DNA from: Minisyncoccota bacterium
Lineage (GTDB): Bacteria > Patescibacteriota > Minisyncoccia > Phycocordibacterales > UBA5272
Assembly: GCA_018063165.1 (NCBI GenBank)
Contig: JAGOQU010000001.1
Span: 130,330 to 194,329, forward strand
DNA: 64,000 nt
Direction of reading: 5' to 3'
Within the stretch, counting starts at the first letter, position 1, and every line of letters starts with the position of its first letter. The position numbers were made by a program, and so were the translations under genes. Below, one piece after another: positions 2,279 to 39,529 of the stretch. Under the pieces are notes generated by a model. The model had not been told where the DNA came from. It ran no database searches and worked only from the letters and a program-made list of their open reading frames with translations.

Positions 2279-3415
2279 TTATTTTTTTGAACATATTTTT
2301 ATAAGCTCCTCTATATCTTCTTTTTCTAATGAAGTATCTGTACCTTTATTAATCGCGTACATAATCGATGTGTCGCTTGTGGTGTGTCCTATACCAAGAG
2401 CATGACCAAGTTCATGTGTTAGAACACGATTTAGTTTTATTTCATTTGAAAATTGATAAATATATATTTTATTTTCTTGCCCACTATACAATCCTTCTGT
2501 AAACTTTTTGCGAGAAACTGCATTACTTGTTGCTACTTTTTCGTTAGCATATGCAACATATTTATTGTAAGCGTCTATTTTTTTATTGATTATTGATAAT
2601 TCTTGAGTAATAGTATCACGAAGTATTGTAAGCTCATCTGCGTCTTTTTGTAAAGATTCTTTTTCTTTGTTTAATTCATCAAATATATTTTTTGGAGCAC
2701 CTCCTTTTTCATTCCAGGAAGCAACACTGTCGTTATAAGCTTTTTGATGTATGTTATAGCTTTCAACTTTTTGAAGATATGTATTTTTATGTTCAGTGAA
2801 CTCTTTTTCCATAGCTTCATAGTCTCTTTTTAGTACTTCTGCAGCTTCTTTTGTGTTATTTATTTCCACACCATTTAAAACATTATTATCGGTTCTTTGC
2901 TGCCTCTCATCATATATAAGATGTATGCTTAGACTAGAAGATAATTGTTGTGGGTCATATATAAATAATTTTTTACCTACTGCGTTATTCCAGAGAGATG
3001 TAGATTCTTCTATTTTTTTTAAAAAATAATCTTTAGATATGTTGAATCTTGTATCAAAAGATCCAAGTGTATAGTAAATAGGAGTATTACAAGGATTGCT
3101 TCTTCGTGAGTATGTTGCATGATCATAATCTTCTTCAATGGTTTCTTGTTCAGTTTTAGGGGCGATATGTGTTGAAGTTGCCAGTGTAAAAACCTGAGTA
3201 AACGTATCTTTTGTATTATTAATATCATCAGTTAGTTTTTCTTTTTTTGTTATTTCTTCTATCTGACTCACGTCTTTTTTTTGTACACTGTGAGTAACTA
3301 CCTGTGTGTTATTTTTTGATTCATCGTTAGTGAACGTTGAAACAACATTACTGTATAAAGCGAAGATAGAAATAACTATAATACTATATGCCTTTGTTAA
3401 TAGGGAAGATATCAT
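2279..3415 (-). CDS. Membrane-anchored metzincin (matrixin-like) zinc metalloprotease
   Basis: C-terminus carries HELGHALGIGH followed by the Met-turn SIMY. There is an N-terminal hydrophobic anchor and a central coiled-coil-like K/E-rich region. Confidence 0.75.
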   Translation of the reverse strand: MISSLLTKAYSIIVISIFALYSNVVSTFTNDESKNNTQVVTHSVQKKDVSQIEEITKKEKLTDDINNTKDTFTQVFTLATSTHIAPKTEQETIEEDYDHATYSRRSNPCNTPIYYTLGSFDTRFNISKDYFLKKIEESTSLWNNAVGKKLFIYDPQQLSSSLSIHLIYDERQQRTDNNVLNGVEINNTKEAAEVLKRDYEAMEKEFTEHKNTYLQKVESYNIHQKAYNDSVASWNEKGGAPKNIFDELNKEKESLQKDADELTILRDTITQELSIINKKIDAYNKYVAYANEKVATSNAVSRKKFTEGLYSGQENKIYIYQFSNEIKLNRVLTHELGHALGIGHTTSDTSIMYAINKGTDTSLEKEDIEELIKICSKK

Positions 3416-3451
3416 GGTGCATTCTTGGGTGTTTATTTCTTGATTACGTAG

Positions 3452-4535: not shown

Positions 4536-5567
4536 TTATTTTTTGTAGACAGAGAGAACAGCAAACAAAATACTGATAATAAGAGGTCCGATAAAGATCC
4601 CAATTGGTCCAAAAAGTAGCATACCACCAAGAACTGAAAGTAAAATAAACAATGGGTGTAATTTTAGTTTGTTTCCGATTAATTTTGGTCCAAGTATGTT
4701 ATCTACTACACCTACTACACCTATTCCCCAAAGGAAGAGTAATAGTGATTCTGTTATGTTGTTTGTAATAAAAAGATAAGCAACGGCAGGAAGTATGATA
4801 ATAGATGTTCCTATTCTTGGTATAAGAGAAGCAACTATGGTAATAGTACCCCAAAGTATACTATTTGGTACACCAAAAAGAGCAAATCCTATAGTCGTTA
4901 AAACACCTTGAATAAAAGCTATTAAGAGGTTTCCTTTTACTATTGAATTAACTGCACCATGAAAACTCGAAATAAGTGTGTCATCATCTTCTTTATTAAG
5001 TGGACTTAATGATTCTATTTCTTTAATTAATTTTTTACCATCTTTAAGAAAATAATACAGTGAAATTAAAAAAATAAAGAAACTAAGAGCAACTTTTGAA
5101 ATACCTGAAAGAGCTGTACCAAGATGATCAATAATCCAAGAAAGTATTTGTTTTATATAAGCGTCTATATTGGCAGAAAGATTAGTAAAAAAGTCACCAC
5201 TTCCCGGAATGATACCATTTGAAAAAACACTTAAAGTATCAGTTAAAGAATAGATTATAGAGTGACGAGTATTTTCTTCTGTTAATGATGAGTAGAGTGT
5301 TAATGCTTGCTGAAAAAGAGTTTTTCCTATGAAAGAAAGTGGAACAACAATACATAAAATAGTGAAAATGATAGTTATCCAAGCAGAAAGTGAATCTCTG
5401 TTTTTCGTTTTTCTAAGTATGTAAGCATACAAAGGATACAGAACTATAGCACACACACCAGCTAATATTAGCGTTGAAAGAAAAGGTTTAAATATAAAAA
5501 AAGTGAGTATTAGTATACCTAAAAGGGTAAAAGCAAGAAATTGTTTTTGTGTTTTATTTGTTTCCAT
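4536..5567 (-). CDS. AI-2E family transporter (PerM/TqsA-like)
   Basis: 343-aa, about 8-TM protein with the characteristic C-terminal segment FHGAVNSIVKGNLLIAFIQGVLTTIGFALFGVPNSILWGTITIVASLIP. Confidence 0.8.
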   Translation of the reverse strand: METNKTQKQFLAFTLLGILILTFFIFKPFLSTLILAGVCAIVLYPLYAYILRKTKNRDSLSAWITIIFTILCIVVPLSFIGKTLFQQALTLYSSLTEENTRHSIIYSLTDTLSVFSNGIIPGSGDFFTNLSANIDAYIKQILSWIIDHLGTALSGISKVALSFFIFLISLYYFLKDGKKLIKEIESLSPLNKEDDDTLISSFHGAVNSIVKGNLLIAFIQGVLTTIGFALFGVPNSILWGTITIVASLIPRIGTSIIILPAVAYLFITNNITESLLLFLWGIGVVGVVDNILGPKLIGNKLKLHPLFILLSVLGGMLLFGPIGIFIGPLIISILFAVLSVYKK

Positions 5568-5623
5568 AATTACACTATATACTAAATAGAGACTTTATCA
5601 AATATTTTTTTAGAATAAAAATT

Positions 5624-5854
5624 CTAGTATCGTTTTTGTTTTTTAGATGTTGCTATATATAATTCTTCTACTTTTTTTCTAGCCCAAGGGGTTCTTCTCA
5701 AAAATACTAAACTAGACGCTATGCTCGGGTTACTTGTAAAACAGTTAATCTTGATTTCTTCTCCGAGTTCTTCAAAACCATATTCAGTAACAAGTTCTTC
5801 TAGTATTGTTTTAAGTGTTTTTCCATATAGTGGGTCATTTGTATGGGTGTTCAT
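5624..5854 (-). CDS. DUF2132 (VF530-like) small helical protein
   Basis: YGKTLKTILEELVTEYGFEELGEEIKINCFTSNPSIASSLVFLRRTPWARKKVEELYI matches the DUF2132 pattern. The start was moved to the internal Met at 5854 to avoid overlap with the upstream gene. Confidence 0.5.
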   Translation of the reverse strand: MNTHTNDPLYGKTLKTILEELVTEYGFEELGEEIKINCFTSNPSIASSLVFLRRTPWARKKVEELYIATSKKQKRY

Positions 5855-12066: not shown

Positions 12067-12131
12067 CTTTAAATGTGTTTAAGGATAGTATTCTCTTTGT
12101 TCTTTAAACAATGTTAGAAAGGGGTTTTTGT

Positions 12132-12383
12132 ATGGTATATAAGACTGAACATAAAGAAATCGGTCTCACAATTAAAATTTCTTCACATAGAAAACATGGT
12201 AATGGTGCAGTTGGTGGTGGTCGTAAGAATACAAGTGGAAAGAAAGCTGTTATCTCAAAAATAGGTAACGAAAATGTTGTTATTACAGCTTGTACCATGT
12301 GTCAGCTTTTAAAGGATATACGATCAAAGTTTAATATACCTCCGTATATTAAAATAAATGAAAAAGGGGAAACTTGTATATGA
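12132..12383 (+). CDS. Hypothetical small protein
   Basis: 83 aa from the internal Met, preceded by AAAGGGG 8 nt upstream. No domain recognised. Confidence 0.3.
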   Translation: MVYKTEHKEIGLTIKISSHRKHGNGAVGGGRKNTSGKKAVISKIGNENVVITACTMCQLLKDIRSKFNIPPYIKINEKGETCI

Positions 12384-12431
12384 TATACAAAAACATCAAC
12401 AATATATTGTTGATGTTTTTTTTATGTATCT

Positions 12432-12716
12432 TTATATAAAAAAAGAAATTAAAAATATCGTTAGTGTTTGTATTAAGATTACTATTAAAAGTTTGGCAAG
12501 ATTAGTACGTATTAGAGTAACATTATTATGTGTTATTTTTTGAATGATATATAGATATATAACAAGAGAGGAGAAATATAATATTGTTGCAAACACAATT
12601 ACAATAAGAAGGTTTGGTCCTTCGGGGTCATTCAAAAACCAAAAAGCTATTTTTGAAGAAAGCAGAGATACTATGTAGAGTGTGATTAAAGAAATAGTTT
12701 TCTGTTTGGTATACAT
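12432..12716 (-). CDS. Hypothetical 3-TM membrane protein
   Basis: 94-aa hydrophobic ORF in a low-coding-density stretch. Confidence 0.3.
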   Translation of the reverse strand: MYTKQKTISLITLYIVSLLSSKIAFWFLNDPEGPNLLIVIVFATILYFSSLVIYLYIIQKITHNNVTLIRTNLAKLLIVILIQTLTIFLISFFI

Positions 12717-12775
12717 ATTTAAAAGTATACAGTAGATTTTTTAATGTGCGTATTTGTATGTATTTATATACTACA

Positions 12776-12808
12776 AAAAAGTAGTCCCAATTGAGACTAC
12801 TTTGTTAG
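12776..12808. terminator. Bidirectional hairpin terminator
   Basis: AGTAGTCccaattgaGACTACT flanked by an A-run and a T-run. It serves the minus-strand gene ending at 12815. Confidence 0.5.
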
Positions 12809-12814
12809 TTGTAT

Positions 12815-13051
12815 TTATTTTGTTGACTTGGTAATTTTTGCTCTACCATAATCAACAATTGGATTCATTTGTATCTGAGCGTTGTAGTTTTCAACATATT
12901 CGATGATGCCTCTCTTACTTAGATACATGGGTGTAATATCCCAGAGAGGGCTATTTTTTGTTTTGTAAAGCCATTGCCACACTTTGTTCTTGTTAACAAC
13001 AGGTGGAATGTTTTGATTTTCTGAATTTACAATAACTAGATCTGCTTCCAT
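12815..13051 (-). CDS. Hypothetical protein
   Basis: 78-aa ORF with a GAAAGG RBS. It could be a fragment of a larger ancestral gene. Confidence 0.4.
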   Translation of the reverse strand: MEADLVIVNSENQNIPPVVNKNKVWQWLYKTKNSPLWDITPMYLSKRGIIEYVENYNAQIQMNPIVDYGRAKITKSTK

Positions 13052-13135
13052 TGGTATACCTTTCGTAACAAAATACCTTTTTTATAATAATATTATTTTA
13101 TATTTATGTCAATTTTTACTTTAAGATTTTTAATG

Positions 13136-13381
13136 TTAGAGTCCGTTAATATCTTCGTTGATATTAGTAATGTCAGCTTCAAAATTTTCTCCATCTATTG
13201 CATTAAGATCAGCATCTATAGAACTAGGTTCAGGTGTTACTACTTCTGGTGTTTTGACCTGCTCAGGTGTTGTTAGTACTGTTTCAGGAGATTTTTGCAT
13301 ATCTTTTTTTGAATAGTAGAAAACAACACTAATAATGATAAGGATTACTGCAACAACTGAGATGATTATTTTTTTGTTCAT
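13136..13381 (-). CDS. Small membrane-anchored acidic protein
   Basis: N-terminal TM (IISVVAVILIIISVVFYY) then an acidic P/E/T-rich tail. Confidence 0.4.
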   Translation of the reverse strand: MNKKIIISVVAVILIIISVVFYYSKKDMQKSPETVLTTPEQVKTPEVVTPEPSSIDADLNAIDGENFEADITNINEDINGL

Positions 13382-13399
13382 AGTATATATACAATAGTA

Positions 13400-21640: not shown

Positions 21641-21714
21641 TGGCTGGGGTACAAGGACTCGAACCTCGATACTCAGGACCAAAACCTGATGTCCTACCAT
21701 TAGACGATACCCCA
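21641..21714 (-). tRNA. tRNA-Gln (anticodon UUG)
   Basis: My own fold. Acceptor TGGGGTA/TACCCCA with U1-A72 (typical of bacterial tRNA-Gln). D-stem GTCT/GGAC. Anticodon stem TCAGG/CCTGA with loop TTTTGGT. T-arm CGAGG-TTCGAGT-CCTTG, discriminator G, then CCA. Confidence 0.85.
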
Positions 21715-22310: not shown

Positions 22311-22519
22311 ATATATAAAGTATAATCATCTTTATATAAATAAACAAACAAAGAAAAATATTTTTTGTCAATTATTACTATGTTTTTTGTCTTGTTTTTG
22401 AACAGATATGTTGATGTATATTTTTTTACACAACAACACAAAAAAATCGCTTGCGCGAGAATAGAAAGAGAGAGTATACTCATTTCTATTACTACGTTAT
22501 TTTTTATATTCCTCTTTGT

Positions 22520-22771
22520 ATGTCGCAAGAATTTTCACCAACACAAATAGCTACCGAGAACGTTGATGCAAATACAGTACGATCATTGTTTAAATTAGAA
22601 GGACAGTTTTTACACAAACATACATTAGCTACACAAGAATATAATAAAGCACTTTCAATTGCAGAAAATATAGATGACAGAGAGGAGACATCTGTTCCAT
22701 ATAGAAGAAATGCAGTATACGCAGCGTCACTTCTTACTATTGCAAGTTTGCGAGGTGCTCAAATTGCATAA
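22520..22771 (+). CDS. Hypothetical small protein
   Basis: 83 aa from the internal Met. Confidence 0.3.
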   Translation: MSQEFSPTQIATENVDANTVRSLFKLEGQFLHKHTLATQEYNKALSIAENIDDREETSVPYRRNAVYAASLLTIASLRGAQIA

Positions 22772-22884
22772 CATACTATTCTTTTTTAAAAAAAGGTATA
22801 CACAGATATATCTTGACGTTTTCTTCTTTTTATGAGAGAGTAAAAGTATATTTGACCTTATAAATTAAAGGTAAAATTAAAAAC

Positions 22885-23178
22885 ATGGCACTTAGTAAAG
22901 ACTTATCAAAGATCCTTGAGGAATCCGCACTTACTTTTGAAGAGGTGAGGGCTTTTGAAACAGGCTTACTTTTGCTTACTCCAGAAGAACAAGATGAGTT
23001 CATGGAGATTATTAAGCAAGATCCAGAATTAATTTATCCTTTGTATATTAATTTTAAAGTGAAGTTGCGCGCAGTACATGGCACAGAAGAAGAATGGTCT
23101 GAAGCAATAGAAACAGAAATAGTTCAGCTTGAAGAATATATAGCAAAAAGAAAAAAAGTTGGCAGTGAGATACGTTAA
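22885..23178 (+). CDS. Hypothetical acidic protein
   Basis: 97-aa E-rich ORF followed by a strong terminator. Confidence 0.45.
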   Translation: MALSKDLSKILEESALTFEEVRAFETGLLLLTPEEQDEFMEIIKQDPELIYPLYINFKVKLRAVHGTEEEWSEAIETEIVQLEEYIAKRKKVGSEIR

Positions 23179-25140: not shown

Positions 25141-25154
25141 TTTTTTTAGAGAAT

Positions 25155-25188
25155 AAAAAAACGCTCACACTGTGTGAGCGATTTTTGT
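25155..25188. terminator. Bidirectional terminator
   Basis: CGCTCACACtgtGTGTGAGCG flanked by an A-run and a T-run, between convergent genes. Confidence 0.7.
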
Positions 25189-25210
25189 GTAACCTGGTTG
25201 TTATATGATC

Positions 25211-25453
25211 TTACAGATCACCCGCGGCTGCACGTTTGTAGTCTTTTCTTTTTTGACTAACTCTTGGCATTCTTGCTTTTTCTTTTTTAATATATTTTGC
25301 CCTTATTTCCTCCACTATTACATCCCTAAATGGAGTTTCTTTCATGATTTTATCAAAAGAATCTTTCCCCATGATTCTTTCTGCTTCTGCAACAAAGTCA
25401 CTCGTAGACATTTTTTCAAGAAGCAAAACATCTTCCTCAGTAAACATAGCCAT
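25211..25453 (-). CDS. Hypothetical small protein
   Basis: 80 aa from the internal Met, with a basic C-terminus. Confidence 0.4.
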   Translation of the reverse strand: MAMFTEEDVLLLEKMSTSDFVAEAERIMGKDSFDKIMKETPFRDVIVEEIRAKYIKKEKARMPRVSQKRKDYKRAAAGDL

Positions 25454-25593
25454 AAAGGTACCTTTCTTTAGTGATGGTGTATATTTATTATACAATATTT
25501 ATGATAAAAAGTCAAATTTATAATAATTGATTATAATATTTTTTTTAAACAAAAAGCATTCCAAATAGGAATGCTTTTTAAGGTCTGGGTACA

Positions 25594-25848
25594 TTATTTT
25601 TTTGGTACCACTTTTATTTTTGCTGACCTTCTTTTTGATATACCACTTCTTTTACCACCAAGAGAGCTAATACACTGTTTAACCCTTAAAGGAACATCAC
25701 GGTAGCTATTATAGCCAAAGTATTTTGCTGCTTCCCAGATGTTGTAAATATGTATCGGGTAGTTGTACATTTTTGCACGCTCTCTGATCTTTGCTGCAAG
25801 CTCTTGCTCTTCTTCAGTGAAAACAAGGGTCTCTTTTTTTGTGGCCAT
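25594..25848 (-). CDS. Hypothetical small basic protein
   Basis: 84 aa with a K/R-rich C-terminal tail. Followed by a hairpin terminator at about 25553-25583. Confidence 0.45.
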   Translation of the reverse strand: MATKKETLVFTEEEQELAAKIRERAKMYNYPIHIYNIWEAAKYFGYNSYRDVPLRVKQCISSLGGKRSGISKRRSAKIKVVPKK

Positions 25849-25938
25849 GTAAAGCCTCCTTTCATAAAAAACAACAAAAACACTTTATCATAAAAATGAT
25901 AAAGTGTCAATGTTTTGGTTACTGCGGTATGAGTTGTT

Positions 25939-29961: not shown

Positions 29962-30105
29962 AGAGTTAATTTGTTAAGTATAACAAATTAACAGTTCTTA
30001 GCTATTAGCTGATAGTTTTTAGCTAAATACATACTGACGACATAGAAATAAGTAAAAAAAACAGAAAAACAAAAACCGCAACGCAGTTTTTGCGTGGCGG
30101 TTGGT

Positions 30106-30726
30106 TTAGTGAACGCAATACTCACGAATGAGTTCCTTACGTGTAGATGTTTTAAGACCACGAAGAGGAATCTTGCGAATCAGTTCTTGTTCTTCGCAAA
30201 ACTTTCTTTTATTCTTTGCTTGTTCTTCAGCAAGATCTGTAAGATAGGATTCTCGCCAGTAATCGAAATCAGTATACCCTTGAAGTTGACAGTCATCATC
30301 TAAAGGTATAAAAGTATCAAATTCATATGAATATTGACCAGGGAACAATCTGTCATCTGAGTCATATCTGTACAAATCCCAGTTTGGGTCTCCTGCTTCA
30401 AACCATAGATCCTCCATTCTTTCGAGTTTGTGGAACAGCTTTGCTTCGTTATTGTTAAGCTCACGCCATCCGCGTTCCATAGCAAGACAAAGGTAATCGT
30501 CGGTCATCCGATCGAATTTACTATCTCTTATCTCCATCATCCAGTCAAGGAAACGGTCATCTTCACCGAAATCTTCAAAGTCAAAGATGTGAAAGTGCGA
30601 TTCAAGTTCTTGACTTAAATGGTAATTAAATTCCATCCGGTCGATTTCTTCATTGCTTGGTGCCGTAAGGTACGGCAGGGTTGCGACGAATTTTTTCGAA
30701 CCAGAAACTTTACGATTTTTAGCCAT
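30106..30726 (-). CDS. Highly acidic Trp/Asp/Glu-rich hypothetical protein (cassette 1)
   Basis: 206 aa from the internal Met MAKNRKVSG, with a GGAGA RBS. Composition and local GC content are atypical for the window. Confidence 0.55.
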   Translation of the reverse strand: MAKNRKVSGSKKFVATLPYLTAPSNEEIDRMEFNYHLSQELESHFHIFDFEDFGEDDRFLDWMMEIRDSKFDRMTDDYLCLAMERGWRELNNNEAKLFHKLERMEDLWFEAGDPNWDLYRYDSDDRLFPGQYSYEFDTFIPLDDDCQLQGYTDFDYWRESYLTDLAEEQAKNKRKFCEEQELIRKIPLRGLKTSTRKELIREYCVH

Positions 30727-30839
30727 TTTTATCTCCAAAAGTTGTTGAAAAGTACAGAAATCTTTAGTGAAATGAACAATATTCAATTCAAAAAGCAGAA
30801 TTATAGTATACACTAAATATAGAAAAAGTCAAGTAAAAT
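30727..30839 (-). repeat. Copy 1 of a 113-bp promoter-plus-5'-leader module
   Basis: Near-identical to 31387-31498 (3-4 mismatches). On the minus strand it reads TTGACT, 16 nt, TATACT, then about 75 nt of leader, GGAGATAAAA and the ATG. Confidence 0.7.
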
Positions 30840-30906
30840 TGAATTGAAAAGTATTATTAAATATGAAAAACAAAAACCGCTAATGCAGTTTTTGTCTAGC
30901 GGTCTA

Positions 30907-31386
30907 TCAGTATGCAGTTTGTAGCGGTCCATCTTGCCAACATGTTTCCTCGAGATATTCTTTCTCAGGTGCAGATATTGGATCAGGATTCAGCCATGAA
31001 TAGCGAGCGGGTATCACAGCCCAGGTTAATCTTGGTCGTGAGTCCCACCAGTCTACAGCAAAACGAAGATCAGTCTTTTCCTGTAAAACTTGACGTAGTT
31101 TAGCACCAAGATATAACTCAGGGGATTCAGTCTGGTCTTTTAGGTGTAGTGCAACAAGCAGTGATCCGCTTGTCTTACATGTTTTGCATTCACGGTAGTT
31201 TTCAAGGTATCCATTACCGTTACAGTCAATACATCTATCGTAATATAGTTCCCATGCAACCTCATCATCATGATCATCAAAATAATCATCATACAGACCA
31301 TCGATACCCCAAGGGCCCATTACAACAAGTGCGGTCAAGGTCTCAGAAACTTCACGTGAACTTGGTTTAAAGCGGTTTGCTTTCAT
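30907..31386 (-). CDS. Hypothetical acidic protein with a CxxC...CxxC zinc ribbon (cassette 2)
   Basis: 159 aa containing CIDCNGNGYLENYRECKTCKTSG. It is W/D-rich. Confidence 0.55.
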   Translation of the reverse strand: MKANRFKPSSREVSETLTALVVMGPWGIDGLYDDYFDDHDDEVAWELYYDRCIDCNGNGYLENYRECKTCKTSGSLLVALHLKDQTESPELYLGAKLRQVLQEKTDLRFAVDWWDSRPRLTWAVIPARYSWLNPDPISAPEKEYLEETCWQDGPLQTAY

Positions 31387-31498
31387 TTTATCTCCAAAAG
31401 TTGTTTAAAAGTACAGAAATCTTTAGTGAAATGAACAAAATTCAATTCAAAAAGCAGAATTATATTATACACTAAATATAGAAAAAGTCAAGTAAAAT
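31387..31498 (-). repeat. Copy 2 of the 113-bp promoter-plus-leader module
   Basis: See copy 1. The 3' flanks of the two ORFs (30066-30102 and 30866-30903) are also related hairpin terminators. Confidence 0.7.
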
Positions 31499-31816
31499 AG
31501 TAAAAAAGTCTTTTAAAATAATGAAAACAAAGCAATAAAGAAGATTTTGCTTGAGTTGCTTTATATTGTATTTCACAGACTCAAGTTTTTCATTTTAAAA
31601 GTTTCTCGGAGACTGACGAGTCGAGAGGGAGCGAATTGCGAAGCCGAGCAATTACGCGACTTTTAAAATGGAAAACTAAAAAGAAAACAAGAATTGATGT
31701 AAGGAAGAGTTTGATATTTAAACAGAGAAAATTTCTATATTTCAAAAAATAAGAATATAAAATATTTTATACAGAATACGGACCTGGATTCCATATCAAG
31801 CCTGGAATGATAAATA

Positions 31817-31856
31817 CAAAGAGCGAAACCGAAGGTTTCGCTCTTTGTATTTTTAG
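31817..31856 (-). terminator. Terminator downstream of dnaB
   Basis: CAAAGAGCGAAACCgaaGGTTTCGCTCTTTG with T-rich flanks. Confidence 0.6.
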
Positions 31857-31913
31857 TTACAGTCTACCCAGTAGATAATTCTACTGAATCACATGCTAAT
31901 CACTAAAAGCTCT

Positions 31914-33401
31914 TTAGAAGTCCTGTATATTTACACTAACATTCGGCATAGAAAAATCTCCAAACTCTGATTTCTCAACAGAAACGAACGAGGTCTTCTT
32001 GTCATCAAAGTATAGTTCTACCATACCAGTTGGTCCATTACGGTGTTTTTCAATTAAAATTTCTACAATGTTTTTACGTTCAGTTCCTTCAGTTCCATAT
32101 TTGTCTTCACGATGTATGAACATAACCACGTCCGCATCTTGCTCGATAGATCCAGAGTCACGAAGGTCAGAGAGTCTTGGTTTTCCTCCACGAGATTCAA
32201 CGGCACGAGATAACTGTGACAGTGCTATAACCGGAGCGTTAAATTCCTTTGCGAGCGCTTTAAGAGAGCGAGAAATTTCTGTTACTTGATTCACCATGTT
32301 GTCATAGCTTTTAGACGTTCCCATAAGCTGGAGGTAGTCCACGATAATAAGTCCAATAGGTTTATCTGTATTGAGTCGACGAAGTGTACTACGCATGTTA
32401 AGAATAGTATTAGCAGCTTTGTCATCTACAAAGATTGGTGCACGCATGAGTTCGTGCATACCTTGTTGAAGACGTTCGAACTCTTCATCGAGTGAAAGTT
32501 TTGCTGTACGAAGTTTCCAGCTATCAACTTGTGATTGAGCTGAGAGCATACGATCAACAAGTTGTTCTTTACTCATTTCCAGAGAAAAAATTGCAACAGG
32601 TATACCATGTTTTACTGCAGCATTACGAGCAAAATCTAGTGCTAACGATGTCTTTCCAACAGAAGGTCGTGCAGCTAGAATAATAAGATCTGATGGTTGA
32701 AAACCAGATAGTTTGTGGTCAAGGTCTTTGAAACCAGAAGGTGTTCCACGCATACCACCTTCTTTTTCTGACATTTTTTCAATACGGGACCATGTTTCAT
32801 CAATAAGTTCATTAAAGCCTATTAGTCTATCAGATGTACCTCCTTTTGTTGTAATCTCGTATATACTTTTTTCTGATTCTTCTAAAATTGATTCAAGAGA
32901 GTCTGTTTCTTCATAAGCAATTTCACCTATGTGTGTTGTTGCTTCTATGAGTTTACGAAGTAGCTCTTTTTTTCTAACTATCTGTGCATAGTATTTTACA
33001 TTAGATGCAGACCCAACAAGACCAAGAAGATCTGAAAGGTATGAAGCACCACCTATTTGATCAAATTCTTTTCGTTCACGAAGCGCAGCACTTACTGTAA
33101 GTATATCTACAGGTTCTTTTCTGTTTACAAGGTCTTCTATAACTTCGTAAATGATTTGATGCTTTGCTGCATAGAAACTTTGAGAATTAACAACATCTGC
33201 TATGTCAAACATAGCATCAGAAGAAAGAAGAAGTGAGCCTAGTAACGCTTTTTCTGATTCTAAATCTTGTGGAGGTATACGTGGACCACGGAGAGGGTCT
33301 TCTGTAGGTTTACGATCGTAACTTTCATAGTTTCCACCATATTTACTTCTTCCTTTATATTTTTGTTTTGAAGATGATGATAATTGGTCAAGTGGAATCA
33401 T
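31914..33401 (-). CDS. dnaB: Replicative DNA helicase DnaB
   Basis: N-terminal DnaB domain (ALLGSLLLSSDAM), Walker A ARPSVGKTSLAL, and the C-terminal RecA-like fold. Confidence 0.95.
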   Translation of the reverse strand: MIPLDQLSSSSKQKYKGRSKYGGNYESYDRKPTEDPLRGPRIPPQDLESEKALLGSLLLSSDAMFDIADVVNSQSFYAAKHQIIYEVIEDLVNRKEPVDILTVSAALRERKEFDQIGGASYLSDLLGLVGSASNVKYYAQIVRKKELLRKLIEATTHIGEIAYEETDSLESILEESEKSIYEITTKGGTSDRLIGFNELIDETWSRIEKMSEKEGGMRGTPSGFKDLDHKLSGFQPSDLIILAARPSVGKTSLALDFARNAAVKHGIPVAIFSLEMSKEQLVDRMLSAQSQVDSWKLRTAKLSLDEEFERLQQGMHELMRAPIFVDDKAANTILNMRSTLRRLNTDKPIGLIIVDYLQLMGTSKSYDNMVNQVTEISRSLKALAKEFNAPVIALSQLSRAVESRGGKPRLSDLRDSGSIEQDADVVMFIHREDKYGTEGTERKNIVEILIEKHRNGPTGMVELYFDDKKTSFVSVEKSEFGDFSMPNVSVNIQDF

Positions 33402-33494
33402 AATAGAATTAAGTGTACACGAGTAGGTACCACTTGCACAAAAGAAATATATATTGTGTTACTTATAAAATCTGTGGATACTGTGGATAACGAA

Positions 33495-38826: not shown

Positions 38827-38853
38827 GGTAGTGAGATTATTCAGTTCCAATGA

Positions 38854-39174
38854 TTATTCGTAATTGATAATAAACCCTCGTAACTTTTTATTTGCTTCTA
38901 AACTATTTGCTATCTCTTTTGCATCTAATGTACCATACAACATAAATACTTGTTTTGTTGCTTTTGTAATAACTGTCATCTGTACCATAGAAGAGGTAGA
39001 GACAATTTTGATGGACTGATTTCGTGCACCGATTCCTGCTTCAATAAAACCATTTTGTATACGTATATTTGGAAAAGATGTGGTAAGTGTATCAAGAATA
39101 ATTCTAGCACCTGTAATAATTGTTGTGTGTGTGCCAGCCTTGCTTTTACCATCAAAATGTTTTTGTCTAGCCAT
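38854..39174 (-). CDS. SpoVS-like protein
   Basis: FIEAGIGARNQSIKIV resembles the SpoVS segment EIQAIGAGALNQAVKAV. 106 aa. Confidence 0.45.
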   Translation of the reverse strand: MARQKHFDGKSKAGTHTTIITGARIILDTLTTSFPNIRIQNGFIEAGIGARNQSIKIVSTSSMVQMTVITKATKQVFMLYGTLDAKEIANSLEANKKLRGFIINYE

Positions 39175-39224
39175 GAGTAAATGAGATAGTTAAAAGCGAC
39201 ACCGTAAGGTGTCGCTTGTAACTG

Positions 39225-39506
39225 TTATGCCTTTGGTTCGACATTAGCTAGCTTCTTTCTTTTTATTGTTCCGTCTAAATGTTTCATACGACGTTCAGAA
39301 AAAGATACTTTTCCTTCTACAAGAGCGAATAGTGTATGATCACGTCCAAGTCCAACATTTTTTCCTGGCATGATTTTTGTACCACGCTGACGAACAATAA
39401 TTGCTCCAGCTGATGCTGTTTCTCCGGCGTAAAGCTTGGTACCTAGGTACTTTGGCTTACTGTCTGTTAGGTTTTTTGCCGAACCTGCGGCTTTTCTTGT
39501 TGCCAT
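39225..39506 (-). CDS. rpmA: 50S ribosomal protein bL27
   Basis: [16 protein letters not shown]...[32 protein letters not shown]. Confidence 0.92.
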
Positions 39507-39529
39507 AGCGTATACTTAATAAATATTAT

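Follow-up and report, generated by a model that had tools for sequence, protein, structure and literature searches.

A folded, lineage-restricted element beside dnaB in a Minisyncoccota genome, most likely a small structured RNA

Results

Analysis of a 64,000-nucleotide (nt) stretch of a Minisyncoccota bacterium genome (contig JAGOQU010000001.1, positions 130,330 to 194,329; the whole stretch is called the window) revealed a real, previously unlisted folded nucleic-acid element in the non-coding gap that borders the stop codon of dnaB. Comparison with related sequences indicates that the element is held by purifying selection and that it is most likely a small structured RNA restricted to one lineage. 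A first-pass annotation, made from the letters of the window only, had proposed a structured non-coding RNA outside the standard families at this site. That observation was partly confirmed and proved essentially right, and its interpretation was supported by conservation of the element in relatives and by abundant compensatory changes. The motif is new to Rfam and narrow in range; its kind, a lineage-specific structured RNA, is known. To our knowledge, almost nothing is known about the regulatory and structural RNAs of the Patescibacteria (candidate phyla radiation, CPR), which are bacteria with minimal genomes.

The element is a three-way junction of 92 to 94 nt in which a long, A/U-rich closing helix (P1) encloses two hairpins, B and A. 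The arms of P1 lie on the + strand of the window at 31584-31602 (AGTTTTTCATTTTAAAAGT) and 31659-31677 (ACTTTTAAAATGGAAAACT); they are 95% complementary over 19 nt and form two U·G wobbles on the + strand. The perfect 12-bp inverted repeat that had been annotated, CATTTTAAAAGT (31591-31602) and ACTTTTAAAATG (31659-31670), consists of exact reverse complements and extends to these 19 nt. On the same strand, hairpin B (31604-31626) has a TCTCG/CGAGA base, a 3-nt purine bulge, an inner stem of GACT/AGTC and the loop GACG. It is followed by the junction GGGA (31627-31630), which is UGAA in the related locus L018, and by hairpin A (31631-31657), GCG-AATTGC/GCAATT-A-CGC, with a bulged A at 31654 and the loop GAAGCCGA. 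Both hairpins were found where they had been placed before, as GACT-gacg-AGTC at 31611-31622 and GCGAATTGC-gaagccga-GCAATT-a-CGC at 31631-31657. The GC-rich core of about 58% that had been described was recovered in the 56-nt interior (31603-31658, 57%), to which it is confined, and not over 31591-31670 (45%); the remainder of the gap has 27% GC and the window 32.5%.

The predicted fold was more stable than shuffled controls, as the first-pass annotation had expected of a genuine structure; no shuffle was as good, and z-scores were about -6. For the 92-nt stretch, the + strand RNA folded at -36.4 kcal/mol (z -5.9, 0 of 200 shuffles equal) and the - strand RNA at -27.0 kcal/mol (z -5.2), and the corresponding single-stranded DNA (ssDNA) folds reached -23.8 and -20.8 kcal/mol on the two strands (z about -6 on both). 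A length of about 80 nt corresponds to the folded core alone, and a 26-nt core was single-copy in the window.

Six related sequences, one of them truncated, and one doubtful copy were recovered by blast and covariance-model searches. Locus L089, whose DnaB is 97% identical to that of the window, was fetched through this near-identical protein, and its element was found by blastn in the same context. Three further loci were reached through homologues of proteins encoded by the small cassette genes that lie between dnaB and recR: L099/L100 (DnaB 95%), with a more diverged copy between the dnaB 3' hairpin and the first cassette promoter; L092 (DnaB 89%), also more diverged and positioned as in the window; and L093 (no DnaB figure), whose contig begins inside the element. 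In L018 (DnaB 79%), identified with the covariance model at 58 bits rising to 91, the element lies 81 nt upstream of dnaB in the same direction and adjoins a divergent membrane-protein gene, an arrangement that a local inversion of dnaB would produce. In L027 (DnaB 58%), identified with the refined model at 26 bits (65 once included), it occupies a tight 177-bp dnaB-recR spacer in operon direction, and its hairpin A is identical to that of L018 at 20 of 25 positions.

The doubtful copy, in L059 (DnaB 56%), was a covariance-model match of 20.6 bits just after recR. This candidate, at 5559-5656 (E about 0.08 over 724 kb) in a Taylorbacteria genome of 50% GC, combines a long P1 with a U6/A6 hairpin (loop AGCG) and a second hairpin that contains GACG, and is without the CUCUCG/CGAGAG helix. 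In about 25 further genomes of the clade, no copy was found within 3.5 kb on either side of the locus, which implies either a patchy distribution or another location of the element in those genomes. Wherever it was found, the element kept to the dnaB/recR neighbourhood, in four different arrangements and both orientations. There was at most one copy per related locus, and the copies were diverged yet still paired. L018 and L027 carry the element without cassettes.

Some parts of the structure were fixed among copies and others drifted. P1 ranged from 16 to 27 bp and remained A/U-rich, its sequence drifting freely, and the junctions were variable and 0 to 4 nt long (GGGA, UGAA, AGA). The junction between the two hairpins was a purine stretch of 3 to 4 nt. 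The base helix of hairpin B, CUCUCG/CGAGAG, was nearly invariant and was accompanied by a short purine bulge. Its interior measured 12 to 13 nt in the window, L089, L018 and L093, 37 nt in L099 and 66 nt in L092, and its inner stem covaried (GACU/AGUC in the window, GGCU/AGCC in L089, GGCG/CGCC in L018) around a GACG loop common to these three copies; L027 has GACUG. Hairpin A comprised 9 to 11 pairs, with the loop AGCA in five of the seven copies; an A bulges from its 3' strand three to four pairs up from the base, or one pair up in L099. The bulged A and this loop were both kept in L018, L027, L092 and L099, and the truncated L093 copy retains the AGCA loop.

Covariation was measured in a seven-sequence covariance-model alignment, with 500 shuffles as the control. 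Standard pairs occupied 95.3% of pair cells, compared with 69% after shuffling, and 28 of the 35 pairs had changed on both sides (17 of 19 in P1, 7 of 9 in hairpin A, 2 of 4 in the hairpin B base and 2 of 3 in its inner stem); none of the 500 shuffles matched any measure. When the 3' partner was slid by one to three columns, pairing was 40-54%. A hand-made segmentation that did not depend on the model gave 155 Watson-Crick pairs out of 163.

Comparison with L089 provided a measure of selection. The two elements were identical at 91 of 94 positions; one compensatory pair, GACU/AGUC to GGCU/AGCC, accounts for two of the three differences. Four-fold degenerate sites were 68% identical in dnaB, 64% in cysS and 56% in recR, so that 32-44% of them differ, and at this neutral rate the binomial chance of three or fewer differences in 94 is about 4e-12. 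So low a count, with its compensatory pair, set against the divergence of four-fold sites, argues that the element is under selection for structure. Around it, the adjacent spacer plus hairpin T1 (described below) was identical at 57 of 61 positions (93%), the cassette promoter at 32 of 32 and the cassette 5' untranslated region (5'UTR) at 56 of 77; DNA past 31708 was about 47% identical and the neighbouring protein about 70% (67% by BLASTP, 71% by global alignment). Identities as uneven as these speak against the block having arrived in one recent transfer.

In the + orientation, the 213 pair cells comprised 191 Watson-Crick pairs, 12 G·U, 1 A·C and 9 others, with wobbles at independent positions in the window/L089, L099 and L027. 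Unpaired bases in this orientation were 70% purine and the bulged base was an A. Taken together, the G·U wobbles, the purine-rich loops and the bulged A favour the + strand as the folded strand. This orientation was also co-directional with dnaB/recR in L018, L027 and the doubtful L059, so in these loci the element could simply be transcribed along with those genes.

The flanks of the element were conserved over short distances. The spacer 5' of P1 (31553-31583, + strand) carries the -10-like TTGTATTT at 31566-31573 and, read on the - strand, forms the linker AAAUACAA. TTGTATTT, which resembles the TGTATAAT -10 element of the clear promoters of this clade, lies 10 to 11 nt before P1 in four of the five same-context copies and 16 nt before it in L093, and is absent in L018 and L027. 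Beyond the spacer, hairpin T1 (31516-31552, - strand), which contains AAGCAA/TTGCTT at 31530-31552 plus a T-run, is a terminator-like insulator just upstream of the cassette promoter. Its stems covaried in L092, L093 and L099, and the terminator scan scored it in the opposite orientation in L099 and L092. T1 and its linker were also present in L090 and L101, both of which are without the element, so they seem to belong to the context of the cassette promoter. On the other side of P1, an A-rich flank (TAAAAAGAAAAC..., 31678-31708, + strand) was conserved, and similarity to L089 stopped at about 31708. A promoter scan found no consensus promoter ahead of the element on either strand; only weak -10-like elements were present on both.

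The gap that holds the element measures 527 bp (31387-31913) and is non-coding. It is flanked by dnaB (31914-33401, - strand; Pfam DnaB and DnaB_C) and by a gene for a 159-aa protein without family assignment (30907-31386, - strand). The earlier figure of about 410 bp was therefore too small, and part of the gap is already explained: 31387-31495 is the promoter and 5'UTR of the 159-aa gene, the promoter itself (31464-31491, - strand, TTGACT-16-TATAAT) matching the consensus at 11 of 12 positions, and 31812-31852 is a bidirectional terminator 3' of dnaB, a strong 19-bp hairpin with T-runs on both strands. Both are context and lie outside the element; the hairpin is the sole terminator available to a + strand transcript of it. 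Nor was the gap unusually long, as had been thought. On a crude map of open reading frames (ORFs) of at least 110 aa, on which the median gap is 65 bp, it ranked only fifth in the window, behind gaps of 1333, 864, 798 and 703 bp. The earlier statement that it holds no ORF beyond a few codons needed correction as well: mechanical ORFs of up to 51 aa cross the region, but none is conserved.

In the window, the element sits in a hot spot of variable small-gene cassettes. The ancestral order, established from 80 species-level relatives, is cysS-dnaB-recR, and among relatives the length of the dnaB-recR spacer varies between 14 bp and about 1.1 kb, with small ORFs that differ by genome; the insert is wholly absent in several genomes whose DnaB is 94% identical. 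In the window, this spacer contains the element and two unrelated small genes, of 159 and 206 aa, each headed by the same promoter-plus-5'UTR module of about 125 bp; the promoter of the 159-aa gene has its duplicate at 30807-30832. The cassette protein families are tiny (7 and 13 clusters among 5.8 billion sequences). Neither protein matched a Pfam or PADLOC family, and one marginal PHROG match, of unknown function, was obtained for the 159-aa protein.

Searches against known families returned nothing on the element. Rfam 15 (4227 models), run at gathering and at permissive thresholds with E up to 10, was empty on the element in the window, in agreement with the earlier failure to match tRNA, tmRNA, signal recognition particle (SRP) RNA or RNase P. 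On the L092 and L018 homologues Rfam likewise gave nothing on the element; the sub-threshold matches in all these scans were chance ones of microRNA or small nucleolar RNA type, far below threshold and none on the element. ARAGORN found no tRNA remnant in seven loci, and a literature search yielded no mention of a comparable element. Compared by eye with the known consensus motifs, the hammerhead, domain V/VI of group II introns and the kink-turn do not fit the sequence. The terminator scan called no intrinsic terminator in 31300-32000, and the sequence that comes after P1 is A-rich on the + strand and CUUGAG on the - strand. A 38-aa + strand ORF (GGGAG site, TTG start at 31636), whose frame is kept in L089, was rejected because L092 has no start codon.

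Searches of wider collections were also negative. The gap had no blastn match among 50,697 phage records. The element was also missing from viral contigs scanned for exact patterns, and the lone promoter-pattern match (L095) was a consensus promoter only. Two exact-pattern scans of metagenomes gave 0 matches, the first with a pattern that would miss the L089 variant too.

Discussion

These results are best accommodated by a gene or module for a small structured RNA that would be read from the + strand of the window, a reading to which we give about an even chance. Fixed loops and a fixed bulge on freely covarying stems are the pattern of a protein-recognised RNA, and the putative RNA would probably be recognised by a protein; the same pattern, in a structure without a junction pocket, is unlike a ligand pocket or an antisense seed. 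We infer the strand, the transcript ends, the partner and the function. The window transcript, convergent to dnaB, would start from the weak -10-like TTGTATTT and would end either at the bidirectional terminator (31812-31852) or by trimming back to the core protected by P1. Its most likely action would be that of a stable RNA bound by a putative protein partner, and this role would concern how the dnaB-recR region is expressed or processed, or else the variable cassette genes located there. The element resembles lineage-specific bacterial small and protein-binding RNAs in being a GC-rich intergenic island in AT-rich DNA, with covariation-backed helices, conserved loops and bulge and a narrow range; it differs from them in its unusually long, near-perfect closing helix and in its varying orientation to neighbouring genes.

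Several observations weigh against a + strand RNA gene. No consensus promoter precedes the element on that strand, and in DNA so AT-rich, words like TGTATTT occur often. A + strand terminator is not reached for 135-220 nt, across DNA that is unconserved even in L089, and on the - strand the T1 hairpin plus T-run lies within about 40 nt of the element; indeed, the L089-conserved block (31523-31708) resembles a compact - strand unit. The wobble bias amounts to just four to six or so independent events, z-scores are similar on both strands, and ssDNA folds equally well. Furthermore, the covariation alignment was fitted to the structure of the model, and the linkage to dnaB is partly ascertainment, since the loci were collected around dnaB or the cassette proteins. 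On balance, we place the + strand slightly above even as the functional strand; the - strand is unlikely, and a strand-independent or DNA-level element is, the two taken together, unlikely to the same degree.

The same fold could instead be carried by RNA of the - strand, either a small RNA transcribed from its own weak promoter (near 31696-31720) or the end of the dnaB transcript, which would stop at T1 (31530-31552 plus T-run) just before the cassette promoter. The cassette genes have GGAG ribosome-binding sites, UUGGAGAU for example, to which the UCCC and CUC left unpaired in this RNA could bind. We consider this unlikely. A run of four to six T residues directly follows the T1 stem in five of five same-context copies, with covarying stems, and the block conserved in L089 spans exactly from the -10-like hexamer to the T-run, as a - strand unit would. 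The L092 insert forms G·U pairs on the - strand, z is slightly better there in L089, L099 and L092, and UCCC is unpaired in the - strand fold. In the shared helices, however, the wobbles turn into A·C mismatches on this strand (5 A·C and 0 G·U in a manual tally) and the unpaired bases become pyrimidine-rich and almost without A. The T1 hairpin and linker remain in L090 and L101 without the element, and in L027 the RNA would be antisense to a dnaB-recR operon too tight to hold a promoter. An antisense seed RNA is unlikely in particular, because UCCC is lost in L018, where it reads UUCA, and no consistent duplex was found: duplexfold of the element RNA, from either strand, against the conserved cassette 5'UTR gave long, inconsistent duplexes (z from -4.7 to +1.1) without a common site. 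RsaE/RoxS-type UCCC RNAs of the Firmicutes share with the - strand the unpaired UCCC, CUC against GGAG and a terminator that follows; they differ in that no sequence or fold homology exists, in the UUCA of L018, and in that wobbles and loops favour the other strand. A strand-independent role is improbable. Here P1 would be a double-stranded RNA stalk serving as an RNase III-type processing, stability or insulation site in or near dnaB-recR transcripts, which would suit both its unusual length and nearly perfect pairing and the occurrence of the element in both orientations relative to dnaB/recR (in the operon spacer in L027, upstream of dnaB in L018, possibly after recR in L059, inverted in window-type loci). 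A plain stalk needs no conserved loops, bulged A or invariant CUCUCG/CGAGAG helix, and would not give a strand-biased wobble pattern.

A DNA-level element, acting as folded ssDNA or a cruciform, was judged rather improbable. It might mark the cassette hot spot as a site related to recombination or replication, in the manner of attC or attP, or be a short invertible segment or a decayed miniature inverted-repeat transposable element (MITE). Integron attC sites have a conserved extrahelical base and keep their structure while the sequence drifts; the element, like attC and the attP of CTX phage, is an imperfect palindrome with conserved structure and an extrahelical base beside variable cassettes. 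The ssDNA z-scores on both strands, the almost purely Watson-Crick pairing, the position at the edge of a variable cassette array in the dnaB-recR hot spot and the two orientations between genomes all fit such a site. Against attC specifically, the arms read 5'-GTT...AAC-3' without an R''/R' consensus, RYYYAAC/GTTRRRY core sites were not seen, each array has one element and not one per cassette, the cassettes carry their own promoters, and L018 and L027 have the element where there are no cassettes. No integrase, invertase or transposase was present in any island examined; for an inverton, the orientation of the element does differ between genomes, and its 56-bp interior is very short for site-specific inversion. 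The 19-bp terminal inverted arms around a short interior recall a MITE or repetitive extragenic palindrome, a candidate rejected on the single copy in 64 kb, the lack of any visible target-site duplication and the diverged but paired copies. A replication origin or terminus was rejected as well: GC skew is positive across the window with no switch, and the 12 relaxed DnaA boxes, compared with 13.6 expected, form no cluster and are absent from the gap. A known ribozyme or riboswitch class, such as the hammerhead or a purine-type three-way-junction aptamer, or a chance palindrome, is scarcely credible. The three-way-junction topology is shared with the hammerhead, and the octamer CUGACGAG (31613-31620) resembles its CUGANGA core. 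The first-pass annotation had called this word a heptamer; CTGACGAG is an octamer at the same position. It had rightly dismissed the hammerhead, since the word forms part of the stem and loop of hairpin B, away from the junction, and is absent from four homologues (L099, L092, L093 and L027). No GAAA strand is present at the junction, and hammerhead covariance models gave no match on either strand with E up to 10. A ribozyme is unlikely because no known core is present. A riboswitch is unlikely because P1, at 19 bp (16-27 bp among copies), is far too long and because a complete promoter (TTGACT-16-TATAAT, 31491-31464) intervenes before the next gene; in addition, the favoured strand is opposite and the junctions are variable. 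A chance palindrome is excluded by the conservation and covariation.

Backed by covariation and by strong purifying selection, the motif offers a handle: it could be tracked in metatranscriptomes or used to find a protein partner, and it could help to explain how reduced genomes organise a fast-evolving cassette hot spot between dnaB and recR, which are conserved genes of replication and repair. A bolder reading, very improbable in our estimate, is that the element is a folded single strand, of DNA or of cis-acting RNA, which accompanies dnaB-recR among CPR bacteria and marks where promoter-bearing cassettes are gained, lost and shuffled. This would be an integron- or inverton-like system without a recognisable recombinase, in which the bulged base and the loops serve as recognition marks. 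Were the element to act at the DNA level, it would be relevant to the acquisition of accessory genes by CPR genomes.

Additional observations

The dnaB-recR hot spot was seen in the window at 29962-31913 and in loci L002-L023 and L089-L102, with small, fast-evolving ORFs that lack a family assignment. Between genomes with 97% identity in DnaB, the 206-aa protein has about 70% identity, and L089 is without the 159-aa gene. The 159-aa protein contains two CxxCxGxG-like motifs (CIDCNGNG and CKTCKTSG) reminiscent of DnaJ-type zinc fingers. The promoter-plus-5'UTR module extends over about 125-150 bp (window 30727-30906 and 31387-31520, - strand, copies about 90% identical) and consists of TTGACT-16-TGTATAAT followed by a leader of about 75 nt ending in GGAGAT. 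The same module heads cassette genes in L089, L090, L092, L093, L096, L099 and L102, and a hairpin in the leader covaries (GAAUUGAA/UUCAUUUC, GAUAUGAUU/AAUCAUAUC and GAGUCGAAU/AUUCAACUU). The duplicated module may serve as a common cis-regulatory leader and may also be the substrate on which cassettes are shuffled or deleted.

Relatives carry a covarying hairpin after the dnaB stop, CGTAAAAAC-TAGCAAG-GTTTTTACG and variants, with its T-run antisense to dnaB (L089 5477-5545, L099 2062-2125, L102 140-215; also L022, L003, L090 and L096). A conserved motif of about 20 nt, AATTAGCCTAC(C/A)TCCTTA, lies 3' of this hairpin and includes an anti-Shine-Dalgarno-like CCTCC. Hairpin and motif occur with or without the element and cassettes; the window has the 31812-31852 hairpin instead. 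Between dnaB and the element, a shared motif, ATCCAGGT(T/C)C, was found in L092 (about 2525-2560), L089 (about 5570-5600) and the window (about 31780-31800). Its L092 version, GGTTCGAAT, is like the T-arm of a tRNA; ARAGORN finds no tRNA there, and the motif could be the scar of an old attachment site.

Elsewhere in the window, the larger gaps at 12067-13399 (1333 bp), 22311-23174 (864 bp) and 38827-39529 (703 bp) were without Rfam matches, as was the 798-bp gap at 25141-25938. The last contains a near-consensus promoter, TTGACT...TGTATAAT, at about 25522-25487 on the - strand, with no ORF of at least 110 aa downstream on that strand; this promoter may drive a small gene or RNA. A tRNA gene (21644-21714, - strand) was the sole RNA of the Rfam/ARAGORN class detected in the window. 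A perfect DnaA box, TTATCCACA, occupies 33482-33490 on the - strand, immediately before dnaB in the 93-bp spacer that separates it from cysS. In L018, a DnaA box (3413-3421) directly follows the element and is also upstream of dnaB; these boxes may reflect control of dnaB by DnaA.

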